Shown in pieces: positions 2,549-60,468 of a stretch of DNA of 64,000 bases. Below the pieces are notes generated by a model. The model worked only from the letters and a program-made list of their open reading frames with translations. It did no database searches and was not told the origin of the DNA. Source of the stretch: Candidatus Dojkabacteria bacterium (GTDB taxonomy: Bacteria > Patescibacteriota > Dojkabacteria > J137); assembly GCA_030950485.1 (NCBI GenBank), contig JAUZRK010000001.1, positions 103,998 through 167,997 of the forward strand, given 5' to 3'. The position numbers and the translations under genes were made by a program. Within the stretch, counting starts at the first letter, position 1; every line of letters starts with the position of its first letter.

Positions 2549-2921
2549 AGTTCATTCTAATGCTTAATGATTCATTTTTCTACAAATTTCTTATCACGTG
2601 AAATATTCTCGAAAGAATTCCTTGAAAACTTTAGCTTGTTTAGGATATAATCAACTAACGCTTTGAAGGAGAATACGTCGCTCCGGAGCACCAGAAAGAA
2701 AAGAGATAAGCAATAAGATAAAAGATTTAAGACAAAAATGTTCTTACTTCTTAGTTCTTATACCTTATTTCTTATTAGAAATTGGCGGGTAAGCCCGAGA
2801 AAGCTGTAATTAAGTGCCCATCTAAACAAAGTTTAGGTTGGGAAAAGGGGTGGTAACACCGTGACTTCATAGGTCCCCTAAAAGTTGAATTAAGATTTAA
2901 GTAATAAGATCTAAGACTTTT

Positions 2922-3284
2922 ATGGTGGACTTTACAAAACTAAACATCTGGATTCGTGCTAAGAATTTATCCGTTGAGATATATAGACTTACAGATGATT
3001 ATCCTAAAATAGAACAATTTGGCATCTCAAATCAAATGAGGCGAGCAGCGACTTCAGTTCCAGCAAATATATCTGAAGGGTGTAGCCGGGATTCTAAAAA
3101 AGATTTTTCTTATTTTTTAAGCATAAGCATTGGTTCACTAAATGAGATCTATACTTTTCTAGAAATCTTCTCAGATCTGAAATATCTACAATTAAGCAAG
3201 AAGAATACACTTATTAAAGAAATTAATGAACTTAAAAGCATGATCTATTCTTATAAAAAAAAACTTAAGACTAAGGAGTCTTAG
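2922..3284 (+). CDS. four-helix-bundle protein (23S rRNA intervening-sequence protein family)
   Basis: 120 aa, residues typical of TIGR02436-like proteins (..GSLNEIYTFLEI..); paralog at 43322-43687. Confidence 0.6.
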   Translation: MVDFTKLNIWIRAKNLSVEIYRLTDDYPKIEQFGISNQMRRAATSVPANISEGCSRDSKKDFSYFLSISIGSLNEIYTFLEIFSDLKYLQLSKKNTLIKEINELKSMIYSYKKKLKTKES

Positions 3285-3324
3285 ATCTTATGTCTTAAAT
3301 CTTATATCTTATATCTTTAAATAA

Positions 3325-6189
3325 ATGGCATTACCAAAAGGAGCTTACAATCCAAAAGAAAATGAACAAACTATACTTGATAGGTGGTTAGAAGCTTGTG
3401 CTTACAAACCCGAATATGATCCAAAGGAGAGCAGAGTAGTTAGTTTTGAGGAAATGAAAAATGATTCAAGAGAGGCGTGGAGTTTAATCTGTCCACCTCC
3501 AAATGCTTACGGAAGACCTCATATTGGAAATATTTCTGGATATGCATATATGGACGTAATGGCGAGATTTCAGAGAATGAATGGGAAAAAAGTTTTAGTT
3601 TTGCCAGGTAAAGACCATGCTGGTCTCGAAGGAGAGGGAGTATTCGTTAGAGAAGTACTTGAAAAGCAAAAAAGAGACAAATTCGACATGAAAAGAGAAG
3701 AGTTCTATTCAGAAATGATGGATTTCTTTGAAAACAATATGGATATTGCTATGAAAGATGAGAAAGAAATTGGACTTTCTGCAGATTTTGATAGAGATAC
3801 TTTTACACTTGACCCTGATATTGTAGAGACTGTTTTAGATACATTTGTTGAAATGTATAACGCAGGAATGATTTATAAGGGGGTTAGATTAATCAACTGG
3901 GATCCAAAGGCCAGAACTGCAGTTGCAGACAATCAAATACTTTATAAGGAATCAAAGACGCCTTTCTTTTATTTTAAGTATATTTATAAAACTGGAGACG
4001 AGAAAAGGGCCATTGAGCTGAAAAATGAATTTGAAGGAAAAGAGCTTGAATGGAACTATGAAAGAAATATGACAAAAGACGGGAAAGAGGATTTAACTTT
4101 TTCATATGGTCATTTGGATAATCTTGAGATTATGGGATATGGATACAGTAACGTCCAATCAGGAGACAAAATCAGGGGTAGAGTAGTGGGCATACAAATG
4201 AGGTTGGATAGTAAATACCGATTAGTGGTTATCCATCCTGACTATTCAGGAGACATCAAAAATGATATTGCTCAAACATTTTTATTCGAAGCAAAGTACT
4301 ACGCTGGAGCACACATTCTTTTATTCGAAGAGAATTCAAATGATTCAGATTATACAAATGGATTTGTAATTGGAACAGTACGACCTGAAACTGTATTTTC
4401 AGACACGGCAATAGCTTGTGATCCAAAAGATGAAAGATACAAAGAATTTGTTGGAAAAGAGGTTGAAGTAGAGTTCTTAGGAGAGAAGAAAAAATTAAAC
4501 TTCATTGCAGATTTTGCAGTTGATAAAGATTTTGGAACAGGTTTACTTAAGGTAACTCCAGCCCATGCAAAAGAAGACTGGGAGATTGCAAGCAGACATC
4601 CTGAAGAATGTTTACCTGCTATTCAGTGTATTAATTATGATTTAACAATGAATCATATATCTGGAGAGAAATATTCTGGTAAAAAGGCAAAACTTGTTAG
4701 AACTGAAATGAGAGAGGATATGTTAAAGAAGGGAAATCTTGTTTACGTTAATGATGAATACGAGAATAAAATACAGGTTGCAGAAAGAACTGAAGCCCCA
4801 ATCGAGCCTTTATTGTCTTCTCAGTGGTATTTAAGATACGACGGTATAAAGGAAGCTACAATTTTAATGGCGTTTAATGAGCATAATGATGATACAAATT
4901 TGGAACAGAGCAGAGAAGAACTGGAAGAGATATTGGAGAAATTCAATTCCGTAGGGGCAAATAATTATTTGCCCCTACGGAACGATTTACCCTTACAGAA
5001 GAGTTTACCTGAACAGAATGAAGATATTGAAACGAGAACAGATTCAAAGGCAACGAACCCGCAACCAGAGACCCATAACTCAGTTCACATACACCCCGAA
5101 ACAATGGTTCCAAAGTTTAATCATTGGATGAATAATTTAAGGGATTGGGCAATTTCAAGAAGTTTATGGTGGGGGTATAGATTGCCGGTTTGGTATTCAG
5201 GAGAGGTTAAGGAGGTTATTGATGAGAATGGACAGGTAAAGGAGTTGATTATGCAAAATGGTACATTTGTTGAATTAGAATATGCTAATCCAGAGCATAT
5301 TAAAGTACAGAAAGAATCACCTGGAGAAAGCTGGATCCAAGACGAAAACGTACTCGACACTTGGTTTAGTTCTGGGCAATGGGTTTATGCGACATTAAGA
5401 AAACATAATTTAATGGATGAATTTTTCCCATCAGACGTTATGGTTTCAGGTTTTGACATAATGGAGAATTGGATTAGTAGGATGATGATGTTTACTTATT
5501 TTAAAGAGAAGTCTATTCCGTTTAAGGATGTATATCTAACAGGATTGGTAAAAGGTACAGATGGACAGAAAATGAGTAAGTCAAAAGGTAACTTAATAAA
5601 CATTGACGAGGTTAGAGAAAAATACGGAACTGACGCGGTTAGAATGGTTTATTATTACCAAAATACTGCTGGTGCTGATTATGCAATGACTTATGAGAAG
5701 CTTGATACATTTAAGAAGTTTGTAAATAAGATTTGGAATGCGAGTAAATTCGTAGAGATGAATGTTGATGGCTCCGAAGGCGTAGGGACAAATAATAATT
5801 TGTCCTTACAAGATTTTCAATTGCCAGAGACAAAAGCCTTATTTAATCACATTCAAGAAATTAAAGAACAGATTACAAAGAATATTGAATCATTCGAGTT
5901 AGGTCATGCAACCTACAACCTTTATCATGGGTTCTGGCATGAATTTGCAGATGTCCATATTGAGGCTGTAAAGAAATATACTTATACTCAAAGAGATAAA
6001 GAAACAGGAGAGATAATTAGTGAGCCAAAGGCTGAAGAAAAAATTGAGGTGGGTAGAGTGTTGCTGTATGCTTTAAAGAATTACCTAAAAATGCTACATC
6101 CATTTATGCCATTTGTAACTCAAAGAATTTGGGATGAGTTAGAAAAGGAAGAGGGGGAGCATGAGTTTTTGATGTATTGCAAGTGGTAA
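3325..6189 (+). CDS. valS: valyl-tRNA synthetase (class I aaRS)
   Basis: 954 aa; HIGN-type motif PHIGNISGYAYMD, KMSKS motif GQKMSKSKGN, editing-domain-sized insert; carries an in-frame palindromic insertion at 4947-4983. Confidence 0.8.
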   Translation: MALPKGAYNPKENEQTILDRWLEACAYKPEYDPKESRVVSFEEMKNDSREAWSLICPPPNAYGRPHIGNISGYAYMDVMARFQRMNGKKVLVLPGKDHAGLEGEGVFVREVLEKQKRDKFDMKREEFYSEMMDFFENNMDIAMKDEKEIGLSADFDRDTFTLDPDIVETVLDTFVEMYNAGMIYKGVRLINWDPKARTAVADNQILYKESKTPFFYFKYIYKTGDEKRAIELKNEFEGKELEWNYERNMTKDGKEDLTFSYGHLDNLEIMGYGYSNVQSGDKIRGRVVGIQMRLDSKYRLVVIHPDYSGDIKNDIAQTFLFEAKYYAGAHILLFEENSNDSDYTNGFVIGTVRPETVFSDTAIACDPKDERYKEFVGKEVEVEFLGEKKKLNFIADFAVDKDFGTGLLKVTPAHAKEDWEIASRHPEECLPAIQCINYDLTMNHISGEKYSGKKAKLVRTEMREDMLKKGNLVYVNDEYENKIQVAERTEAPIEPLLSSQWYLRYDGIKEATILMAFNEHNDDTNLEQSREELEEILEKFNSVGANNYLPLRNDLPLQKSLPEQNEDIETRTDSKATNPQPETHNSVHIHPETMVPKFNHWMNNLRDWAISRSLWWGYRLPVWYSGEVKEVIDENGQVKELIMQNGTFVELEYANPEHIKVQKESPGESWIQDENVLDTWFSSGQWVYATLRKHNLMDEFFPSDVMVSGFDIMENWISRMMMFTYFKEKSIPFKDVYLTGLVKGTDGQKMSKSKGNLINIDEVREKYGTDAVRMVYYYQNTAGADYAMTYEKLDTFKKFVNKIWNASKFVEMNVDGSEGVGTNNNLSLQDFQLPETKALFNHIQEIKEQITKNIESFELGHATYNLYHGFWHEFADVHIEAVKKYTYTQRDKETGEIISEPKAEEKIEVGRVLLYALKNYLKMLHPFMPFVTQRIWDELEKEEGEHEFLMYCKW
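4947..4983. repeat. GC-rich perfect palindrome ttccgtaggggcaaataattatttgcccctacggaa embedded in-frame in valS (encodes SVGANNYLPLRN)
   Basis: perfect inverted repeat; same element recurs in two other genes. Confidence 0.8.
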
Positions 6190-34484: not shown

Positions 34485-35570
34485 ATGACAAACCTTAAAC
34501 AAAACCTCAATCTTAAAAAATACAACTCTTACAGAGTAGAAGCTTTTGCTAAACACTTTATAGAAATAAATAACGAAAAAGACCTTGAAGAACTAAAAAA
34601 CATATCTGATTTTAAGAGCTTGAGAAAAATGGTCTTAGGTGACGGTTCTAATACTTTATTTGTAAATGATTATGATGGATTAATTATTAAAAATGATCTT
34701 AAAGGTAAAGAAATAGTTAAAGAAACAGATGAATACATATTAGTTAAAATTAATTCAGGAGAGAATTGGCATGAGTTTGTAACTTGGGCAGTAGAAAGCA
34801 ATTACGCAGGAGTTGAAAATATGGCTTTAATACCTGGAAGTATAGGAGCAGCTCCGGCTCAAAACATTGCAGCTTATGGACAGAACCAAAGTGATATTTT
34901 TGTAGAGCTGACAGCTTTCAATCTAGAAACTTTCGAATATGAAGTTTTTAATTCAGATAAATGTGATTTTAAATATAGGAGCAGTGTTTTCAAAAATGAA
35001 TTCAGAGATAAGTATTTTATTACTGACGTAACTTATAAACTTAGTAAGTACACTAAAGAATTAGAAACTAGTTACCACGAAAGAAAGCGAAGATATGGAT
35101 CACTTCAGGACGCTTTAGAAGCAGTTGGAAAAGAGCCTTTTGGGATTGATGATATTTATAATGCAGTTATTTACATGAGGAAAAGAAGATTACCTGATCC
35201 TGATAAAGTAGGAACAGTAGGTAGCTTTTTTATTAATCCTATCGTCTCTAAAGAAAAATTTGAAGAACTTTCGAAAATGGTTTCAGAACTTCAACATTAT
35301 CCTTTTGATAAACTAATGTATACAGAAAAAGAGTGGGATGTCATTAAGGATGACTATGTTAAAGTACCTGCTGCTAGATTTATTGACGAGAGAGGCTGGA
35401 AAGATAGATGGATAAATAATGTTGCAAGCTCCCCATCTCATGGGCTTTGTATAATTTCAAACTGGAGAGCTTCAGGTCAAGATATTCTAGACTATGCAAA
35501 CTTAGTTAAAAAAGATATTTTTGATACCTATGGAATTGAACTAGAGAGCGAGGTAAATATTATTCAGTAA
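34485..35570 (+). CDS. murB: UDP-N-acetylenolpyruvoylglucosamine reductase
   Basis: FAD-binding domain with VLGDGSNTLF, C-terminal MurB domain. Confidence 0.7.
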   Translation: MTNLKQNLNLKKYNSYRVEAFAKHFIEINNEKDLEELKNISDFKSLRKMVLGDGSNTLFVNDYDGLIIKNDLKGKEIVKETDEYILVKINSGENWHEFVTWAVESNYAGVENMALIPGSIGAAPAQNIAAYGQNQSDIFVELTAFNLETFEYEVFNSDKCDFKYRSSVFKNEFRDKYFITDVTYKLSKYTKELETSYHERKRRYGSLQDALEAVGKEPFGIDDIYNAVIYMRKRRLPDPDKVGTVGSFFINPIVSKEKFEELSKMVSELQHYPFDKLMYTEKEWDVIKDDYVKVPAARFIDERGWKDRWINNVASSPSHGLCIISNWRASGQDILDYANLVKKDIFDTYGIELESEVNIIQ

Positions 35571-35582
35571 AGTAGTAGTTTA

Positions 35583-35730
35583 AAAGTAAAAAGTTAGAAG
35601 TAAAAAGTATAAGACGCAGTTATTACCTTACTTACTATGCAATACTTCTTATGTCTTAAATCGTATTTCATAAATCTAGCTTCTTGCCACTTTTTTTATT
35701 TGACTTTTTACTTTTAAATTTTAACTTTTC
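35583..35730. repeat. inverted pair of AT-rich promoter-like repeats (aaagtaaaaagt.. and ttgactttttacttttaaattttaactttt) flanking an 80-bp core
   Basis: same motif family at 45352-45438, 53350-53386 and 53685-53715. Confidence 0.5.
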
Positions 35731-48849: not shown

Positions 48850-48905
48850 GCGACGATGAAGGCGACAATCATGATTGTCGCCTTCGGATAATTGCCGCCT
48901 TCATT
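48850..48905. promoter_or_regulatory. perfect 28-bp palindrome gaaggcgacaatcatgattgtcgccttc plus two extra half-sites (ggcgacgat, aattgccgccttc) in the folA / kinase divergent region
   Basis: GC-rich dyad symmetry in an AT-rich spacer; operator-like or hairpin. Confidence 0.45.
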
Positions 48906-48930: not shown

Positions 48931-49962
48931 TTGAAAATGACTGAAAAATTAATAAAAAAAATATTAAAAAAATATGGATATGATGTTGTAAAAATATATC
49001 CAGAGCAATCAGGGTATCGTAATAAATCTTATGCGGTTGATGTGATGCATTTGTATGATTCTGTAAGGGCAAAAAATATTTTGCCCCTACAGAGAAAACG
49101 AAATTTGATCCTTTATAAAAATGAGCAAGGAATTATTAAAAAAATACAAAACGCAAACGCAGTTTCAAATTTCCTCGCAGAACAAGGCATTCCATCAAGA
49201 AAATCTCTTGGGAAAATAATTAGGTTGCATGATGAGAAAATAGAAAGATTCGCATGTTTGTACAACTATCTTCCAGGAGAAACCATTTCATGGGAAGCTT
49301 ACAATAAAGAACATATTAAACTATTAGGGAAGGCAATGAGCGATATGCATTTTTATTTAAAGGATTATTCTAAAAAGGATAAGTTGGAAAGTATTGATGA
49401 AATCATTAAAAACCAGGCGAATAAAATGATTCAATATTTTAAAAAAGAGGGTGTTAGAAATGCGATGGTTAGGAAATTGGGATTGATATGTAATATAAAT
49501 TTTATAAACAAATTCGTAGGGGCCGAAAATCTTCGGCCCCTACAAAACATATATTCAGATCAATCTATTCCCCTCCACATGGACCTCGTCCGTAGCAACG
49601 TTCTATTTGATTTAGATAAAAATAAAGACATATTTATTTCAGGAATCATAGATTTCGAAAAAGTAGCAAAGGGAAATCGAATATTTGATATCGCGAGAAC
49701 CTTGGCGTTTCTTCTTGTAGATTGTAAATATAAAGATCCAGTTAAAATTAGGAAATACTTTTTAATAAGTGGATATAAAAAAAGAGAGCTAGAAGATTTA
49801 CCAGATTTAACTCATTTAAACTATTTAATTTACTATTTTTTAACATACGATTTTTATAAATTCTTAAGACATAATCCTTATGAATCATTAAACTCGAATG
49901 AGCATTTTATTCGTACGAAAAACTTTTTACTAAGTAAAAAAATCCTGATAAGCTGTAGTTAA
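48931..49962 (+). CDS. APH/choline-kinase-like phosphotransferase
   Basis: Brenner motif HMDLVRSNVLFD and IIDFEK; carries two in-frame palindromic insertions. Confidence 0.6.
   Translation: MKMTEKLIKKILKKYGYDVVKIYPEQSGYRNKSYAVDVMHLYDSVRAKNILPLQRKRNLILYKNEQGIIKKIQNANAVSNFLAEQGIPSRKSLGKIIRLHDEKIERFACLYNYLPGETISWEAYNKEHIKLLGKAMSDMHFYLKDYSKKDKLESIDEIIKNQANKMIQYFKKEGVRNAMVRKLGLICNINFINKFVGAENLRPLQNIYSDQSIPLHMDLVRSNVLFDLDKNKDIFISGIIDFEKVAKGNRIFDIARTLAFLLVDCKYKDPVKIRKYFLISGYKKRELEDLPDLTHLNYLIYYFLTYDFYKFLRHNPYESLNSNEHFIRTKNFLLSKKILISCS
49061..49092. repeat. palindrome gtaagggcaaaaaatattttgcccctac embedded in-frame in the kinase gene (SVRAKNILPLQR)
   Basis: family A element, one arm mismatch. Confidence 0.7.
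49515..49546. repeat. palindrome gtaggggccgaaaatcttcggcccctac embedded in-frame in the kinase gene (VGAENLRPLQN)
   Basis: family A variant, perfect 12-bp arms. Confidence 0.7.
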
Positions 49963-53138: not shown

Positions 53139-53469
53139 AGTTATGGGTTTTGGGTTTATAGTGTACTAAAATTTTCGTACATTCTTTAAAAATTTAATCT
53201 GTATTATTCACCTCATAGGGGGATAGAAAACCTAAAGATCTGTATTAATCCGTTTAATCAGTTAAATCTGTGTTCTATTTTCAATGGTCAAATTGAACAC
53301 TGATAAAACTGATCAGTACTGATTCTATTACAATTTGAACAATTTACTTTTGACTTTATATTTTTAACTTTTTACTTTATTTATAGTTAAAGGGATCATT
53401 TAAATGTTTAGTTATAAGCCAACCGGCATACGGGGTTTGATATAGTAAACTAAACAATTCAGCTCTTAA

Positions 53470-53640
53470 AAAAATTAGTGCAATCCCCTCCTACGGAGGG
53501 GTACCCGACAGGGCAGGGAGGGTAGCGAGCATTTAAAAAGCTCTCGAGTCAGGATTTAACATACCCAACCCCTTCCGTATTAGCTACGCTAATCCACCTT
53601 CCCGAAGGGAAGGATTAAAACATAAATACAGAGTGAGACT
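53470..53640. ncRNA. GC-rich structured island upstream of thyA (candidate riboswitch or small RNA), flanked by AT-rich direct repeats
   Basis: hairpins cccctcc/tac/ggagggg, ccttccc/gaa/gggaagg and gtgaga/ctttttt/ctcac; long-range gggagggtagcgagc vs gctacgct..ccaccttccc complementarity. Confidence 0.3.
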
Positions 53641-53719
53641 TTTTTCTCACAACTTTTATTTTAGAATAATTAGGATAATTTGCTTTTGACTTTATACTTT
53701 TAACTTTTTACTTTGCACT

Positions 53720-54673: not shown

Positions 54674-55046
54674 ATTAAAACGATTAACAACCTAAATTTA
54701 TGAAATACCTTTTGCATCCATAAAATACTGGATTGCATAACTAAAAAGGTGCTACACTTTATATACAACTTAGCTGTTGAACGAATCAAGAGTATTCTTA
54801 CCTCTGCTCTTGTTAATTATCATTTGAATTTTGATCATGTAGTGACTCTGATACTTGATCAGTATTTAAATACTGAATTATTTTATTTATTAATATACTC
54901 TTTATGAAGTATAAAACCAAATCAGAACGAATCCAGCCCTTGGCTCAAAAGCTCTTGCTACTAGCTTATTCAGAGGTTATTCATAAAAATAAAGCTTATA
55001 CAAATACAATTATCCTGAATAAAGCACATCTTACACTCAGTACAGT

Positions 55047-55160
55047 CTCTAGAAATTTACGATTGAAGGGATGTAAAATACAAACCCGGTGCAGTCTCGA
55101 GTGATTTACGACCGAAGGGATGTAAATTGTATCGAGAGGCGGACACCCCCTCCGCTTCGC
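55047..55160. repeat. two tandem copies of a 35-bp unit containing the dyad ATTTAC-N12-GTAAAT, followed by a GC-rich hairpin
   Basis: gtctctagaaatttacgattgaagggatgtaaaat / gtctcgagtgatttacgaccgaagggatgtaaatt. Confidence 0.5.
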
Positions 55161-55175
55161 TCCAGGCACTCGACA

Positions 55176-56615
55176 CTACACTTTTATAATAAGCTTATTA
55201 TAAATATCAATATGCCCCTGGAGCATTTTTCTTAGAGTAAATTTATTCTCAAAGCTATCTCTACAAACGCTCCTATCAACTTGATTAATTTTCTCCATCA
55301 CTTCAACTAACTCATCGACAACCCTAGACTCACCATAATAGAAATCTCTCACCTTCTTCATCTTACTCTCATAATAACTCTTTCTCTTTTCCCGGTCAGA
55401 ATCATTAATAACAAAACCATTTTTCCCATTTTCTATCAGCTCTTTTGTAGCCCCATTATCTAAACCTATAACCGGAGTCCCACATGATAAGGCCTCTATA
55501 GTAACCATTCCAAACGGCTCCTTAAATATAGAAGGTACTAACAACGCCTTAGCATTCCCTAAAAATTTCTGCTTAGCTTTGTCGCCTGAAACGTATCCAA
55601 CGTATTCAACTGTATCATTTAGTTCAGGCGCAATTACAGAATTCCAATATGAATCATTCGACTCATCTGAATAATGCTTTCCTGCAATCTTTAGAGTTAC
55701 GGGTTTCGAGTTTCGGGTTGCGAGTTCCTCATTATATTTTTTTACTGCAGCTATTGCGTAGTGGACCCCTTTTGGTTCAATTATTCTCCCGAGATAAGCA
55801 AAATATTCTGTATCATTTTGGCCAGCAGGAGCAGGACTTGGCTCACCAGCTGGAGATGGGTTGTACCCTGGTCCTAAATATTTTGGCTTAAACCTTTTTT
55901 CATCAATTCCATGATAAACATTCCCAACCCAATTCGTATCATCCGGCATATCTTCTCTTTGAGATAGAGACATTGAGATAAAATTTCTATCTTTATATTT
56001 CGGTAAAATAGTTCGATATTTCGTTAGAAAAGAGTAGGGATCATGATGCGTAAATACAACTGGCTTATTACAAAGCCCGCTCATCTCAAGTGCGATCTGT
56101 TCTTCCAACATGTAAACATGAACAATATCAAACATATCATCATTAGCCATTTCGTAGGCTTTGGCTATTATTTCAGATTGAAAATGTCTAGAGAGAGTAG
56201 TGAACAGTAAGGGATGTTTTTTAAGGAGTTCTTTTAGACCGTAACCCCTAGTTTCCAGTTCTTCTTTCAGTAGGGTTTGGTCTGCGGTGATGTTTTTTAC
56301 GGTAGGGGCAAAATATCTTTTACCTTTACTCTTTTTTGTTGGATCAAAAAATCTTTTGCCCTTACTGTTATCTCGACCAACAACCCCAGGCGAAAACAAC
56401 GTAACCTCAGCTCCTGCCTCGGCAAGACCATTTGCAAGATCAATAGCAAGATCTCCCGGAGAAAATATATTATCAGACATCAATTCATCCGACATAAAAA
56501 TATGCGGACAAACGAATGCAATTCGTATTGGAAAATTAGGGGCTGTCATCTGCTCTCGTAGGGGCAAAATATTTTTTGCCCCTACGGATTCGATTACATT
56601 ATTTTTCTTCCTCAT
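55176..56615 (-). CDS. GT4-family glycosyltransferase with several in-frame repeat insertions
   Basis: EPFGMVTIEALSCGTPVIGLDNG near the C-terminus; family A palindromes at 56293-56368 and 56557-56586; family C repeat at 55694-55726. Confidence 0.6.
   Translation of the reverse strand: MRKKNNVIESVGAKNILPLREQMTAPNFPIRIAFVCPHIFMSDELMSDNIFSPGDLAIDLANGLAEAGAEVTLFSPGVVGRDNSKGKRFFDPTKKSKGKRYFAPTVKNITADQTLLKEELETRGYGLKELLKKHPLLFTTLSRHFQSEIIAKAYEMANDDMFDIVHVYMLEEQIALEMSGLCNKPVVFTHHDPYSFLTKYRTILPKYKDRNFISMSLSQREDMPDDTNWVGNVYHGIDEKRFKPKYLGPGYNPSPAGEPSPAPAGQNDTEYFAYLGRIIEPKGVHYAIAAVKKYNEELATRNSKPVTLKIAGKHYSDESNDSYWNSVIAPELNDTVEYVGYVSGDKAKQKFLGNAKALLVPSIFKEPFGMVTIEALSCGTPVIGLDNGATKELIENGKNGFVINDSDREKRKSYYESKMKKVRDFYYGESRVVDELVEVMEKINQVDRSVCRDSFENKFTLRKMLQGHIDIYNKLIIKV
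56557..56586. repeat. palindrome cgtaggggcaaaatattttttgcccctacgg in-frame in the GT4 gene (ESVGAKNILPLRE)
   Basis: family A element; degenerate copies at 56293-56330 and 56343-56368. Confidence 0.75.
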
Positions 56616-56707
56616 CTAGAAAATCTAGATCTAGTTCATCAGAAAGACCTTCTTCGTTGTAATCGTATGTATCTGTATCAGCCATATTTTTGTTTTAATA
56701 TAAAATA

Positions 56708-57129: not shown

Positions 57130-58611
57130 TTAATCTAACACAATCTCCTCATCAATCTCCGCATTAGGATCTCGATCAACTCGATCAAAGTTATTAAATA
57201 AAACTCCCAGAGACTCTGCTTTATCTTTATTCTCTCTAAGATAATCAAATAGACTTCCCATTTTATTTACCCCGTTTCCTGTTTCTCGACCCAACTCGAT
57301 ACCCGCAACCCGTAACTCACCTCCCGCTACTCCTAACTTAATATTCGCAGCTACTCCAATCATCGCAGCATTATCTCCAGTCAGCTTAGAAGAGTAGGGA
57401 TACTTTAATTTAACATCATTCTTCTTACATAAACTTCTAAATTCTGATCTTAATCTCTTACTTGCAATAACCCCTCCACCAAGCCAAAGTTCACTTGGAT
57501 TATGCTTCTTTATAGCTCTTTCTAATTTAACTTTTAATTGAGTAATTGCCGAAGCTTCAATCATTACGCATAGATCATTTATTTGATCTCCCGATAAGTT
57601 CTTAGTTTCTTTATTAAGTTGATCTTCAATAGTTATCTCATCTTTTACCAATGAATTAGTTAATTCTTTAAAAGCAGTTTTTAAACCTGAAAAACTAAAG
57701 TTAAAATCTCCAGATCTATACATAGGAATTGGAAGAGAGTAGCTAGTGCCACTTTCTTTATTAGTACCTATAACATTTGTGCTTTTATTATTCTTTTTTA
57801 TTTCAATTTTAAATTTCTTTCTTTGATCATCTGCAAACCTACTAACTGTAGGACCTGCAGGATATCCTAATCCAAGCATACGCCCAGCCTTATCGTAATA
57901 TTCTCCACATGAATCATCTAAAGTAACCCCAATTTTTTCGTAATCTCCAATCCCATTTACTTTAATCATTTCCGTATGCCCCCCAGATATAAGAAAGCCC
58001 AGTACTGCTTTTCCTTCCCTTGAGGGAAGGTCCCTGAAAGGGGGATGGGTGATTTGACCATGTTCTTTATCGTGCTTAATTTTTACCTTAGAATTTCTCT
58101 CAACAAAACCAGACAACAAATGCCCTTCCATATGATTAATAATCATCAAAGGCTTATCAAATTTTTCAGCTAAAGCAATGGCCTTTCTAACTCCAACCTC
58201 TAACGCAATAGCTAATCCAGGACCATAAGTAACAGCAACTAAATCGACTTCACTCATATACTTTCTTAAATCACTTTCTTGTGTTTCCCCCTCTCCTGGG
58301 AGAGGGCTGGGCCTGTCCGAAGCTGCTGCATCGTTGCTGGCGGAGTGAGGGATAGCTCTTTTTAAAGCTTCCACCACTACATTATCAATCCTCTCTGTAT
58401 GAGCTAACTTAGCAAGGCTTGGCACAACACCTCCATATTTTTCGTGGTATTTTTGTTGAGAAGGCATTACGCTAGATAGAACAGTAGTACCTCTAACAAT
58501 TGAACAAGATGTTTCATCACAAGATGTATCAATCGCCAAAGTTGTAATTTCGTTTATAGATTTAGAATTCATTAGGTAATTATACCAAATGAAATTAGAT
58601 CGAACCTGCAA
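57130..58611 (-). CDS. tsaD: tRNA N6-threonylcarbamoyladenosine synthase TsaD (Kae1/Gcp), extended by insertions
   Basis: LAIDTSCDETSCSIV and INHMEGHLL motifs; 493 aa vs about 340 typical; contains a family B palindrome (58287-58307) and a family C repeat (57285-57318). Confidence 0.7.
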   Translation of the reverse strand: MQVRSNFIWYNYLMNSKSINEITTLAIDTSCDETSCSIVRGTTVLSSVMPSQQKYHEKYGGVVPSLAKLAHTERIDNVVVEALKRAIPHSASNDAAASDRPSPLPGEGETQESDLRKYMSEVDLVAVTYGPGLAIALEVGVRKAIALAEKFDKPLMIINHMEGHLLSGFVERNSKVKIKHDKEHGQITHPPFRDLPSREGKAVLGFLISGGHTEMIKVNGIGDYEKIGVTLDDSCGEYYDKAGRMLGLGYPAGPTVSRFADDQRKKFKIEIKKNNKSTNVIGTNKESGTSYSLPIPMYRSGDFNFSFSGLKTAFKELTNSLVKDEITIEDQLNKETKNLSGDQINDLCVMIEASAITQLKVKLERAIKKHNPSELWLGGGVIASKRLRSEFRSLCKKNDVKLKYPYSSKLTGDNAAMIGVAANIKLGVAGGELRVAGIELGRETGNGVNKMGSLFDYLRENKDKAESLGVLFNNFDRVDRDPNAEIDEEIVLD

Positions 58612-59862: not shown

Positions 59863-60438
59863 CTATAAATTTATTATATCATTTATCAGTTCAGGATAAT
59901 CATATCCATGGTCGAAAGCTTCAGTTTCTATTAATTCAATGTTTTTAAATTCACCAAATTGCTCATTTATAAATTCAAAACTTCCTAATGGATCATTTGA
60001 ATTCTGAATGATAGTTATTTCTAATTTTGTTTTTCCAAGAACCTGCTTATATTTTTCTAACCTCTCATTTTTAGAATCTTCCTCCCAATTCTGAATCGGC
60101 AATCCCATAAAAACAACTTTATCAATCTGTTCTTCATAATCCTCAATCAGATTCAAAGAGAGTAGCGTCCCAATCGACTTAGCAACTATACTGTATTTCT
60201 CCCTCTCTTGGGAGAGGTCCGGGGTGAGGGTTTTCGGCACGATACCAAATTTATCACTCATCTCCTTCTCAATAACCCCCAACTCATAACTCCCTACCCA
60301 AGACTCATAACTCACATCATCCCATTTCCTCCATCTATGTTTAATTACATTATGTCCAGATTCCTCCAAAGCATCAGTAACTGATTTCCATTCTGCTTCG
60401 TTGTATATACCTTGTCCTGGTAGATAGAGTATGTTCAT
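59863..60438 (-). CDS. alpha/beta-hydrolase-like serine esterase with an in-frame family B palindrome insertion
   Basis: nucleophile elbow IVAKSIG; palindrome ccctctcttgggagagg (60199-60218) encodes DLSQERE. Confidence 0.45.
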   Translation of the reverse strand: MNILYLPGQGIYNEAEWKSVTDALEESGHNVIKHRWRKWDDVSYESWVGSYELGVIEKEMSDKFGIVPKTLTPDLSQEREKYSIVAKSIGTLLSLNLIEDYEEQIDKVVFMGLPIQNWEEDSKNERLEKYKQVLGKTKLEITIIQNSNDPLGSFEFINEQFGEFKNIELIETEAFDHGYDYPELINDIINL

Positions 60439-60468
60439 ATTATTTTAATTTATTCCAATATTCATTTT

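Follow-up and report, generated by a model that had tools for sequence, protein, structure and literature searches.

Selfish hairpins of the repetitive extragenic palindrome (REP) type are known mainly from Proteobacteria. Those tagged with GTAG are said to go together with RAYT (or RayT) transposases, and REPINs have reportedly been described as well. Rickettsia palindromic elements (RPE) reportedly lie in frame within protein genes, and the small dispersed repeats of Nostoc, 21–27 nt long, are said to be mobile and to land in conserved sequence, genes included; we know of no link between these Nostoc repeats and a transposase. Here we analyse a 64-kb stretch of DNA (hereafter the window) from Candidatus Dojkabacteria, of the Candidate Phyla Radiation (CPR, or Patescibacteria), which is AT-rich (32% G+C) and about 91% coding. 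It carries seven copies of a 28-nt palindrome, family A, that reads GTAGGGGCAAAA-N4-TTTTGCCCCTAC; three of them are found at a gene for a glycosyltransferase of family GT4. We find it fairly probable that family A is a REP-type miniature palindromic element tolerated in frame within genes, and the finding is an instance of an established phenomenon, that of intragenic REPs and RPEs.

Intragenic GTAG REPs, with dimers encoding 20–30 aa and genes hit twice, were described by Di Nocera, De Gregorio and Rocco (2013; PMC3733652), and aminoacyl-tRNA synthetases are among the hosts of such copies. In the same work a GTAG REP is defined by GTAG at one end, not base-paired, RPE-4 and RPE-6 are re-classified as CGTC REPs, and REP copies annotated as N-terminal are recognized as sometimes really extragenic. 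Our literature search found no paper linking REPs or RAYT with CPR/Patescibacteria and nothing on palindromic in-frame elements in CPR; when it was made with literal 8-mers and 12-mers of the hairpin, only unrelated primers came back.

Seven copies in three loci

The 12-mer arm GTAGGGGCAAAA, with one mismatch at most, occurs eight times in the window, as arms of five elements, where shuffles lead to an expectation of 0.18. A covariance model built from the copies was scored, with filters off, at every position over the 64 kb. Together with the repeat search it yields exactly seven family A elements, each with E <= 2e-6; nothing else in the 64 kb fell below E = 0.01, hence no eighth copy. Six of the seven are held by coding sequence. 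They are distributed as follows:

4951..4978: copy a in the valyl-tRNA synthetase gene (ValRS), encoding VGANNYLPL, -27.7 kcal/mol
5782..5809: copy b in ValRS, encoding VGTNNNLSL, with compensatory stem changes
49063..49090: copy a in an APH-like kinase gene, encoding VRAKNILPL
49516..49543: copy b in the APH-like kinase gene, encoding VGAENLRPL, with GCCGAA/TTCGGC compensatory changes, -24.3 kcal/mol
56302..56329: decayed copy at GT4, 3' unit on the coding strand, GTAAAGGTAAAAGATATTTTGCCCCTAC, encoding SKGKRYFAPT, 41 bits
56338..56365: decayed copy at GT4, 5' unit on the coding strand, GTAAGGGCAAAAGATTTTTTGATCCAAC, encoding SKGKRFFDPT, 32 bits, E = 1.8e-6
56558..56585: intact hairpin, most likely in the GT4 leader, perfect palindrome GTAGGGGCAAAATATTTTTTGCCCCTAC, 52 bits

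That all seven copies should fall within three loci is matched by 6 of 200,000 random placements (p about 3e-5); 92 of 200,000 do as well if the GT4 dimer described below is counted once. Clustering is the significant feature of the copies in the window. A first-pass annotation of this DNA had proposed that the GT4 gene is a preferred landing pad. The copies do cluster, but because they cluster in three loci, with two each in ValRS and in the APH-like gene, GT4 is nothing special in this respect.

A hairpin read in two phases

Family A consists of a 12-bp stem closed by a 4-nt loop; it begins with GTAG, ends with CTAC and is sometimes extended to 36 nt, as in ValRS copy a, with TTCC...GGAA. 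Intact copies have stems of 12–16 bp, with folding energies between -15 and -28 kcal/mol (z = -5.7 to -8.7). The GTAG end is present in five of the seven copies, GTAA and GTTG taking its place in the remaining two. The element is symmetric, GTAG being base-paired with the CTAC of the other end. Of the stem cells in the seven copies 94% are paired, four stem pairs have changed on both sides (for example GGGACAAA/TTTGTCC and GCCGAA/TTCGGC), and none of 500 shuffles reaches the covariation score.

The phase GTA-GGG-GCx is translated as VGAxxxLPL and the phase xGT-AGG-GGC as xRGKxxFAPT, while the third phase contains TAG. Only the two stop-free phases are used by the copies of the window: VGAxNxLPL is the reading of five of them, SKGKR(F/Y)F(D/A)PT that of the two that lie inside GT4. 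As identical DNA is read in two phases, what is conserved is the DNA or RNA hairpin, not the peptide. It is true that the peptides recur in three proteins, which might point to a functional peptide motif (VGAKNILPL or GKRYFAPT), and one might also invoke chance low complexity or an assembly artefact; to all of these together we grant a very slight probability. They are effectively refuted: a peptide motif by the two phases and by compensatory changes that keep the base pairs and not the residues (AlphaFold confidence in the segments is, besides, below 50), chance by the eight matches observed against 0.18 expected, and an artefact by the fact that identical proteins are encoded on two independent contigs. 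A miniature inverted-repeat transposable element was also considered, and rejected: the flanks are inverted-complementary (TTCC/GGAA, TCT/AGA) or unrelated, with no direct target-site duplications.

A decaying dimer inside the glycosyltransferase

The annotated GT4 open reading frame (ORF; 55176-56615, minus strand, 479 aa) encodes a Glycos_transf_1 domain (6.5e-26) and GT4 domains. Its product and ValRS are each 100% identical to an NCBI entry of Candidatus Dojkabacteria, and the contig is taken to be JAUZSD010000008.1 of the metagenome-assembled genome GCA_030949735.1. We aligned the GT4 protein with 16 orthologs of about 380–430 aa, at 45–50% BLAST identity. The features that matter here are:

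56301..56378, minus strand: in-frame insert GRDNSKGKRFFDPTKKSKGKRYFAPT, residues 80–105 of the annotated protein, with both decayed copies
55818..55859, minus strand: GC-rich insert PSPAGEPSPAPAGQ (PSPAGE), with an AlphaFold confidence score (pLDDT) below 50 over residues 247–268
55694..55726, minus strand: 'family C' segment (EELATRNSKPV), partly shared with the closest ortholog, P0002 (RTRNSK)
55176..56549, minus strand: GT4 coding sequence with its ortholog-supported start MTAPNFPIRIAFVCPHIF, the ATG at 56549-56547 being M23 of the annotated protein
56599..56685, minus strand: small acidic ORF MADTDTYDYNEEGLSDELDLDFLDEEEK (ending ...DELDLDFLDEEEK), with a homolog upstream of GT4 in another Dojkabacteria

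The insert GRDNSKGKRFFDPTKKSKGKRYFAPT has 26 residues where all 16 orthologs have about 3, a net gain of about 23; being missing from every one of them, it is a lineage-specific in-frame insertion. If translated, the dimer encodes the peptide SKGKRFFDPTKKSKGKRYFAPT. Its two units resemble the consensus at 22–24 of 28 bases. That at 56302-56329 (23–24 bases) folds at -7.8 kcal/mol and keeps its outer arm intact; that at 56338-56365 (22–23 bases) folds at -4.7 kcal/mol, with an outer arm nearly intact. In both, the inner arm has decayed. The units lie 36 nt apart, and this spacing, together with intact outer arms and decayed inner arms, makes the internal copies look like a single REP-dimer insert rather than two separate landings. 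Tandem Repeats Finder did not report the doublet as a tandem array, the units are identical at 26 of 36 positions and the flanks are not clearly duplicated: for these reasons we treat it as a REP dimer, not as a proven tandem duplication.

An AlphaFold model of the annotated protein, made with the ortholog alignment, reaches a mean pLDDT of 77.9 and falls below 50 only at residues 1–24, 82–98 and 247–268, regions that correspond, in this order, to the extension at the N-terminus, to the dimer of hairpins and to the insert PSPAGE. The drop is partly due to alignment gaps, yet it agrees with loop positions: the dimer falls between two confident strands, E70-75 and E107-110. By this model the dimer encodes about 23 disordered residues.

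The first-pass annotation had, from the letters of the gene, counted three family A sequences at GT4, one intact and two degenerate, and seen in them different stages of decay. All three are indeed present and are recovered by the covariance model; they are graded in both consensus match and stability, and the ortholog alignment agrees with the lineage-specific character of the two internal ones. The peptides that it quoted are those of the annotated 479-aa minus-strand ORF. It placed all three within the N-terminal 110 codons, however, and this holds for the two decayed copies only: the intact one most likely belongs to the 5' leader, with translation starting at M23, as we now explain.

An intact copy in front of the probable start codon

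In the alignment, 8 of the 16 orthologs have their first residue no more than three positions away from M23, and another four begin further downstream. The two nearest relatives begin with MRVALVVPHIF and MRLALLCPHIF, to be compared with MTAPNFPIRIAFVCPHIF in the window. Furthermore, the annotated start at 56615 falls within the small acidic ORF listed above. In the other Dojkabacteria (L242, 3106-3273) its counterpart is an acidic ORF of 55 aa, ending ...DLDLSFLDEDDELEQD, that stops 4 nt before the GT4 start. This small ORF, ending DLDL(D/S)FLDE(E/D), is kept directly upstream of GT4 in two Dojkabacteria and is left uncalled in the public annotation of the window. In the window, a spacer of 49 nt, composed of 13 nt, the hairpin of 28 nt and GAGAGCAG, separates its end from the ATG at 56549. 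From the ortholog starts near M23 and the conserved small ORF upstream, we read the intact copy as an insertion in the leader: most likely its place is not in the coding sequence but in the very short spacer between two genes. The start annotated for the 479-aa protein is then probably wrong, and the peptide ESVGAKNILPLRE of the intact copy is probably never translated.

This copy has a perfect 12-bp stem (-23 kcal/mol, z = -7.4), and its palindrome extends to 56553-56588. The likely start codon follows the copy after 8 nt, and the hairpin could mask the ribosome-binding region there. One may ask whether such hairpins are host-selected functional RNAs, which might stabilise the messenger, make translation pause, act as attenuators or, for the one that separates the small ORF from GT4, have a regulatory role. 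In favour of this, compensatory and G-U changes have kept the stem, and an action at the RNA level has been suggested for REPs that separate genes of one direction (PMC3733652). Several observations go the other way. The orthologs function without hairpins, most of the folding stability is gone in two of the three copies at GT4, and the identical 28-mer is scattered over unrelated genes and phyla. No Rfam family matched at gathering score across the whole window, and between 54600 and 56700 matches were at chance level (E = 0.6–0.9); a tRNA scan found none. A scan of the minus strand for intrinsic terminators was negative; on the coding strand the leader hairpin is followed by GAGAGCAGATG, which has no U-tract, so that it makes no canonical terminator. 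Selection of the hairpin by the host seems to us quite improbable and, for the leader copy, it is a lesser rival than the recombination considered further on.

Copies in ValRS and in the APH-like gene

The ORFs that host copies stay open, and what the copies add to the proteins differs from site to site. ValRS copy a is found within a stretch of roughly 35 aa missing from orthologs of 65% identity, while copy b occupies a variable loop with essentially no net gain in length against orthologs. In the APH-like protein, copy a (VRAKNILPL) is a clean insertion of 13 aa, lacking in 16 of 16 homologs; copy b (VGAENLRPL), again in a variable loop, brings a net gain of about 5–6 aa.

A related palindrome accompanies the APH-like gene:

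48858..48885: intergenic palindrome GAAGGCGACAATCATGATTGTCGCCTTC, 28 nt, perfect, the next-best match of the covariance model (E about 0.01)

It is built as family A is (12-bp stem, 4-nt loop), with GAAG/CTTC ends, and it sits in the divergent spacer between a DHFR gene and the APH-like gene, just upstream of the latter. The APH locus thus has, like GT4, one upstream and two internal hairpins.

A hairpin class of many phyla and its transposases

Many bacterial phyla contain hairpins of a class that can be written GTAGGGGC-N12-GCCCCTAC; family A is one of its variants, an AT-adapted one. We scanned reference genomes, one per species (596 Gb), for the exact pattern GTAGGGGC-N8-16-GCCCCTAC and obtained at least 120 loci. 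The matches listed span Cyanobacteria, Chloroflexota, Acidobacteriota, Gemmatimonadota, Bacteroidota, Firmicutes, Proteobacteria, Planctomycetota and several CPR lineages. By our own estimate, chance would give about 2,500 matches to the pattern in 596 Gb. Among the matches listed, 88 of 128 are exactly 28 nt long, and in almost all the inner 12 nt are palindromic or nearly so; these matches are not chance. A few 28-mers, GTAGGGGCGTATTGCAATACGCCCCTAC and GTAGGGGCGCACGGCCGTGCGCCCCTAC for example, are found letter for letter in several unrelated phyla (L001-L120), their carriers including Salinibacteraceae, Planctomycetales, Atribacterota, Kuenenbacteria and Chloroflexota. A Kuenenbacteria genome has a copy in frame within an ORF of 328 codons, and in the relative that carries the GT4 ortholog P0002 a 28-nt GTAGTGGCCAAGCATGCTTGGCCACTAC palindrome lies between convergent genes.

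Metagenomes were scanned with the AAA variant of the hairpin, and the figures that follow hold among the matches listed. The exact 28-mer of ValRS, GTAGGGGCAAATAATTATTTGCCCCTAC, recurs in contigs of 30–67% G+C, and many of its copies are inside ORFs of 400–1750 codons (up to 1,753). ORFs of at least 200 codons contain about 28% of the hairpins, against about 70% of random positions: elsewhere the class is mainly extragenic, and regularly intragenic. In long ORFs the phases split 30 to 8, with none in the TAG phase. Viral contigs gave only 6 hairpin matches, so that phages are no obvious vector.

All-against-all clustering of the ORFs of 240 hairpin-centred loci isolates one family that is not housekeeping, present in 9 of the 240 loci by clustering and in 10 by tblastn:

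L028, L046, L183, L195, L200, L208, L213, L227, L231, L234: loci with RayT-like genes, to which the RayT-like proteins P0391-P0510 of many bacteria are added

The protein has 170–240 aa and the motifs MPNHVHGII ... WQRNYYEHIIR ... YIxxNP. It matches NCBIfam NF047646, 'REP-associated tyrosine transposase', with E = 1e-17 to 4e-18; its 64–66 bits, under the 80-bit equivalog cut-off, make it a relative, not a certified equivalog. Its best PDB match is 4ER8, the TnpArep of E. coli (E = 4.6e-4), JGI annotates homologs as 'REP element-mobilizing transposase RayT', and a Pfam search with the RayT-like proteins gave no match. These loci have one hairpin just upstream of the gene and at least one inside it, directly after the HUH motif and in either phase. 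At least 50 of the best 120 homologs carry hairpin-encoded peptides after HUH, often several, partly decayed. The hairpin class is thereby established as REP-like and, taken as a class, as associated with RayT in other genomes. It is this identity, that of a REP-type hairpin linked elsewhere to RayT-like transposases, that had gone unrecognized in the first-pass annotation.

Comparison with described elements

The likeness to the GTAG REPs is extensive. These are palindromic repeats of 20–40 bp starting with GTAG, and family A makes seven copies of 28–36 nt; the stem lies within their range of 5–13 bp, the loop is short and subfamilies differ by complementary changes in the stem. There are singles and dimers, in-frame copies, dimers of 20–30 aa, doubly hit genes, a tRNA synthetase among the hosts and copies that are N-terminal in appearance only. 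The linkage to genes of REP-associated Y1/HUH transposases is present too, here seen in other genomes. The differences are nevertheless several. The tag of GTAG REPs is unpaired, whereas that of family A is paired and found at both ends. The outer stem GTAGGGGC recurs in many phyla, where that of a GTAG REP belongs to one species or genus, and RayT-like genes hold the hairpin in their own coding sequence, after HUH. GTAG REPs are mostly extragenic, by contrast with six of the seven family A copies, and some 71 kb of the family A genome, covered by tblastn over the 64-kb window and by Pfam matches of the called genes over the rest, showed no RayT gene. New with respect to the GTAG super-family are the paired double tag, conservation across phyla, hairpins inside RayT-like genes and a CPR host.

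With RPE, family A shares the condition of a selfish palindrome lying in frame, and without disrupting them, in unrelated and often essential genes of a reduced, AT-rich genome, the added peptides being tolerated in loops. RPE-1 is longer, though (about 100–150 bp against 28–36 nt), RPE-4 and RPE-6 have a CGTC tag in place of GTAG/CTAC, and the hosts are Rickettsia and Dojkabacteria, respectively; the two are likened by description, not by sequence. The same reserve applies to the repeats of Nostoc, which are likewise very small and mobile and land in genes. A REPIN is reportedly made of two inverted REPs and a spacer, which fold as one long hairpin and replicate as a unit. The GT4 doublet may recall this, since its two outer arms are able to form a longer hairpin together (-19.3 kcal/mol, z = -4.3), but each unit is by itself a full palindrome, and we have a single decaying doublet, in a coding sequence, with no other doublet found.

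How the copies may have arisen

If family A is, as we favour, a REP-type element, its copies would be generated by a RayT-like Y1/HUH enzyme that cuts and joins single-stranded hairpin DNA. With some 91% of the genome coding, most landings would be in genes, and the survivors would be those in stop-free phases, with a net length that is a multiple of three, in permissive loops. At GT4, a dimer would have been inserted in the N-terminal Rossmann domain, in a loop that joins two beta strands, then eroded by point mutation, its hairpins losing stability, while a third copy, intact, entered the spacer between the small acidic ORF and GT4. The latter would be transcribed as a 5'-leader or inter-cistronic hairpin, misleading gene callers into a longer ORF. 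Clustering would reflect local re-insertion or local copying.

A number of facts weigh against this account. GTAG pairs with CTAC, unlike the unpaired single tag of published GTAG REPs. The core, at 28 nt, has a length that three does not divide, and net gains are uneven (13 aa, about 5–6 aa, about 0–3 aa, and 23 aa for the dimer), so that simple, precise insertion cannot explain every copy. The copies cluster in three loci. The nearest orthologs being only 50–65% identical, recent mobility in the lineage is conjectural. When nine RayT-like proteins were compared with the 64-kb window by tblastn, only hairpin-encoded peptides matched; a search of the adjoining 6.7 kb (L244) with the covariance model added no copy, and the genes called there gave no transposase match in Pfam.

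The core length, the copies that resemble replacements and the clustering lead us to keep recombination or gene conversion as the main rival: short-patch gene conversion or template switching, with no transposase, would paste the palindrome over existing sequence. Copies b of ValRS and of the APH-like gene, with little or no net gain, look like such replacements, the strong clustering in three loci would follow, and so would a window in which no RayT gene is found. This scenario is at odds with APH copy a and the GT4 dimer, which are clean insertions, and with the identical 28-mer in unrelated genomes and inside RayT-like genes, which needs a mechanism of transfer and of insertion. Moreover, copies of one cluster, 220–830 nt apart, are not the most similar pairs. 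On the whole we consider recombination unlikely.

A broader proposal, which goes beyond the REP-type identity of family A, is possible but in our opinion rather doubtful when its parts are taken jointly. GTAGGGGC-N12-GCCCCTAC would be an undescribed, pan-bacterial super-family of symmetric ('double-tagged') REPs. RayT-like genes would carry arrays of intact and decayed copies right after HUH. The 28-mers found verbatim across phyla would imply frequent horizontal spread. Finally, ultra-compact CPR genomes would keep almost only in-frame inserts, two or three per gene. They may do so with no resident transposase, the inserts being mobilised in trans (say, by the bacterium on which the episymbiont lives) or copied locally.

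Other repeats of the window

Family A is not the only repeated sequence of this DNA. The first-pass annotation had reported other GC-rich inserts in GT4, and one of them stands: the PSPAGEPSPAPAGQ segment has 56% G+C, against 38% for the gene, and is lacking in 14 of the 16 orthologs. At the same site the closest ortholog, P0002, has an intact hairpin, CCCTCTCC-TTTA-GGAGAAGG, encoding PSPLGEGG; the site is an insertion hot spot. A second GC-rich palindrome family, CCTCTCC-N-GGAGAGG (encoding, for example, PSPLPGEGE), occurs three times in the window, where 0.13 are expected:

53485-53501, 58290-58305, 60202-60217: CCTCTCC-N-GGAGAGG palindromes, with another near 10700 of L241

TsaD contains one of the three and the ORF 59863-60444 another; the third is intergenic and precedes thyA. 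That PSPAGEPSPAPAGQ might be a decayed member of this family is a suggestion drawn from P0002; with at most one mismatch per arm, it gave no match. As to the 'family C' repeat which the first-pass annotation had located at 55694-55726, it has only matches of 12–17 nt elsewhere in the window and is in part common to the closest ortholog, so that it makes a weak repeat family. In ValRS, the hairpin of copy a is directly followed, at 4979-5090, by a further lineage-specific segment, NDLPLQKSLPEQNEDIETRTDSKATNPQPETHNS, of which a GC-rich piece (5049-5075) resembles 'family C' (GGTTGCGGGTTCG on the other strand).

AT-rich dispersed repeats, of the TCTTATGTCTTAAATCTTATATCTTA and AGTAAAAAGT types (families D3, D5-D7, I1, I7 and I22), cluster between genes, and one of these clusters adjoins a 23S_rRNA_IVP-like gene upstream of ValRS:

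2700-3320, 35570-35730, 53320-53715: intergenic clusters of AT-rich repeats

The convergent spacer of 500 nt between thyA and GT4 holds a direct repeat of 43 nt (55035-55077 and 55084-55126, 81% identical, with a period of 49 nt), followed by a GC-rich segment (55127-55182), and has no Rfam match.

What the hairpins mean for compact genomes

REP-type selfish hairpins also live in CPR/Patescibacteria. In a genome that leaves next to no room between genes, they have been kept in frame, as additions to an essential ValRS and to a glycosyltransferase, and the inserts of GT4 and ValRS make a natural experiment on how proteins gain, then erode, new loop sequence. There is a practical side to this for genome annotation: the public 479-aa model of GT4 most likely starts in the neighbouring small ORF and reads through an untranslated hairpin, and misannotated starts are to be expected wherever such hairpins adjoin start codons. 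The GTAGGGGC class, whose hairpins sit inside RayT-like genes of their own, is a tractable subject for the study of how Y1/HUH enzymes recognize and spread minimal hairpins.

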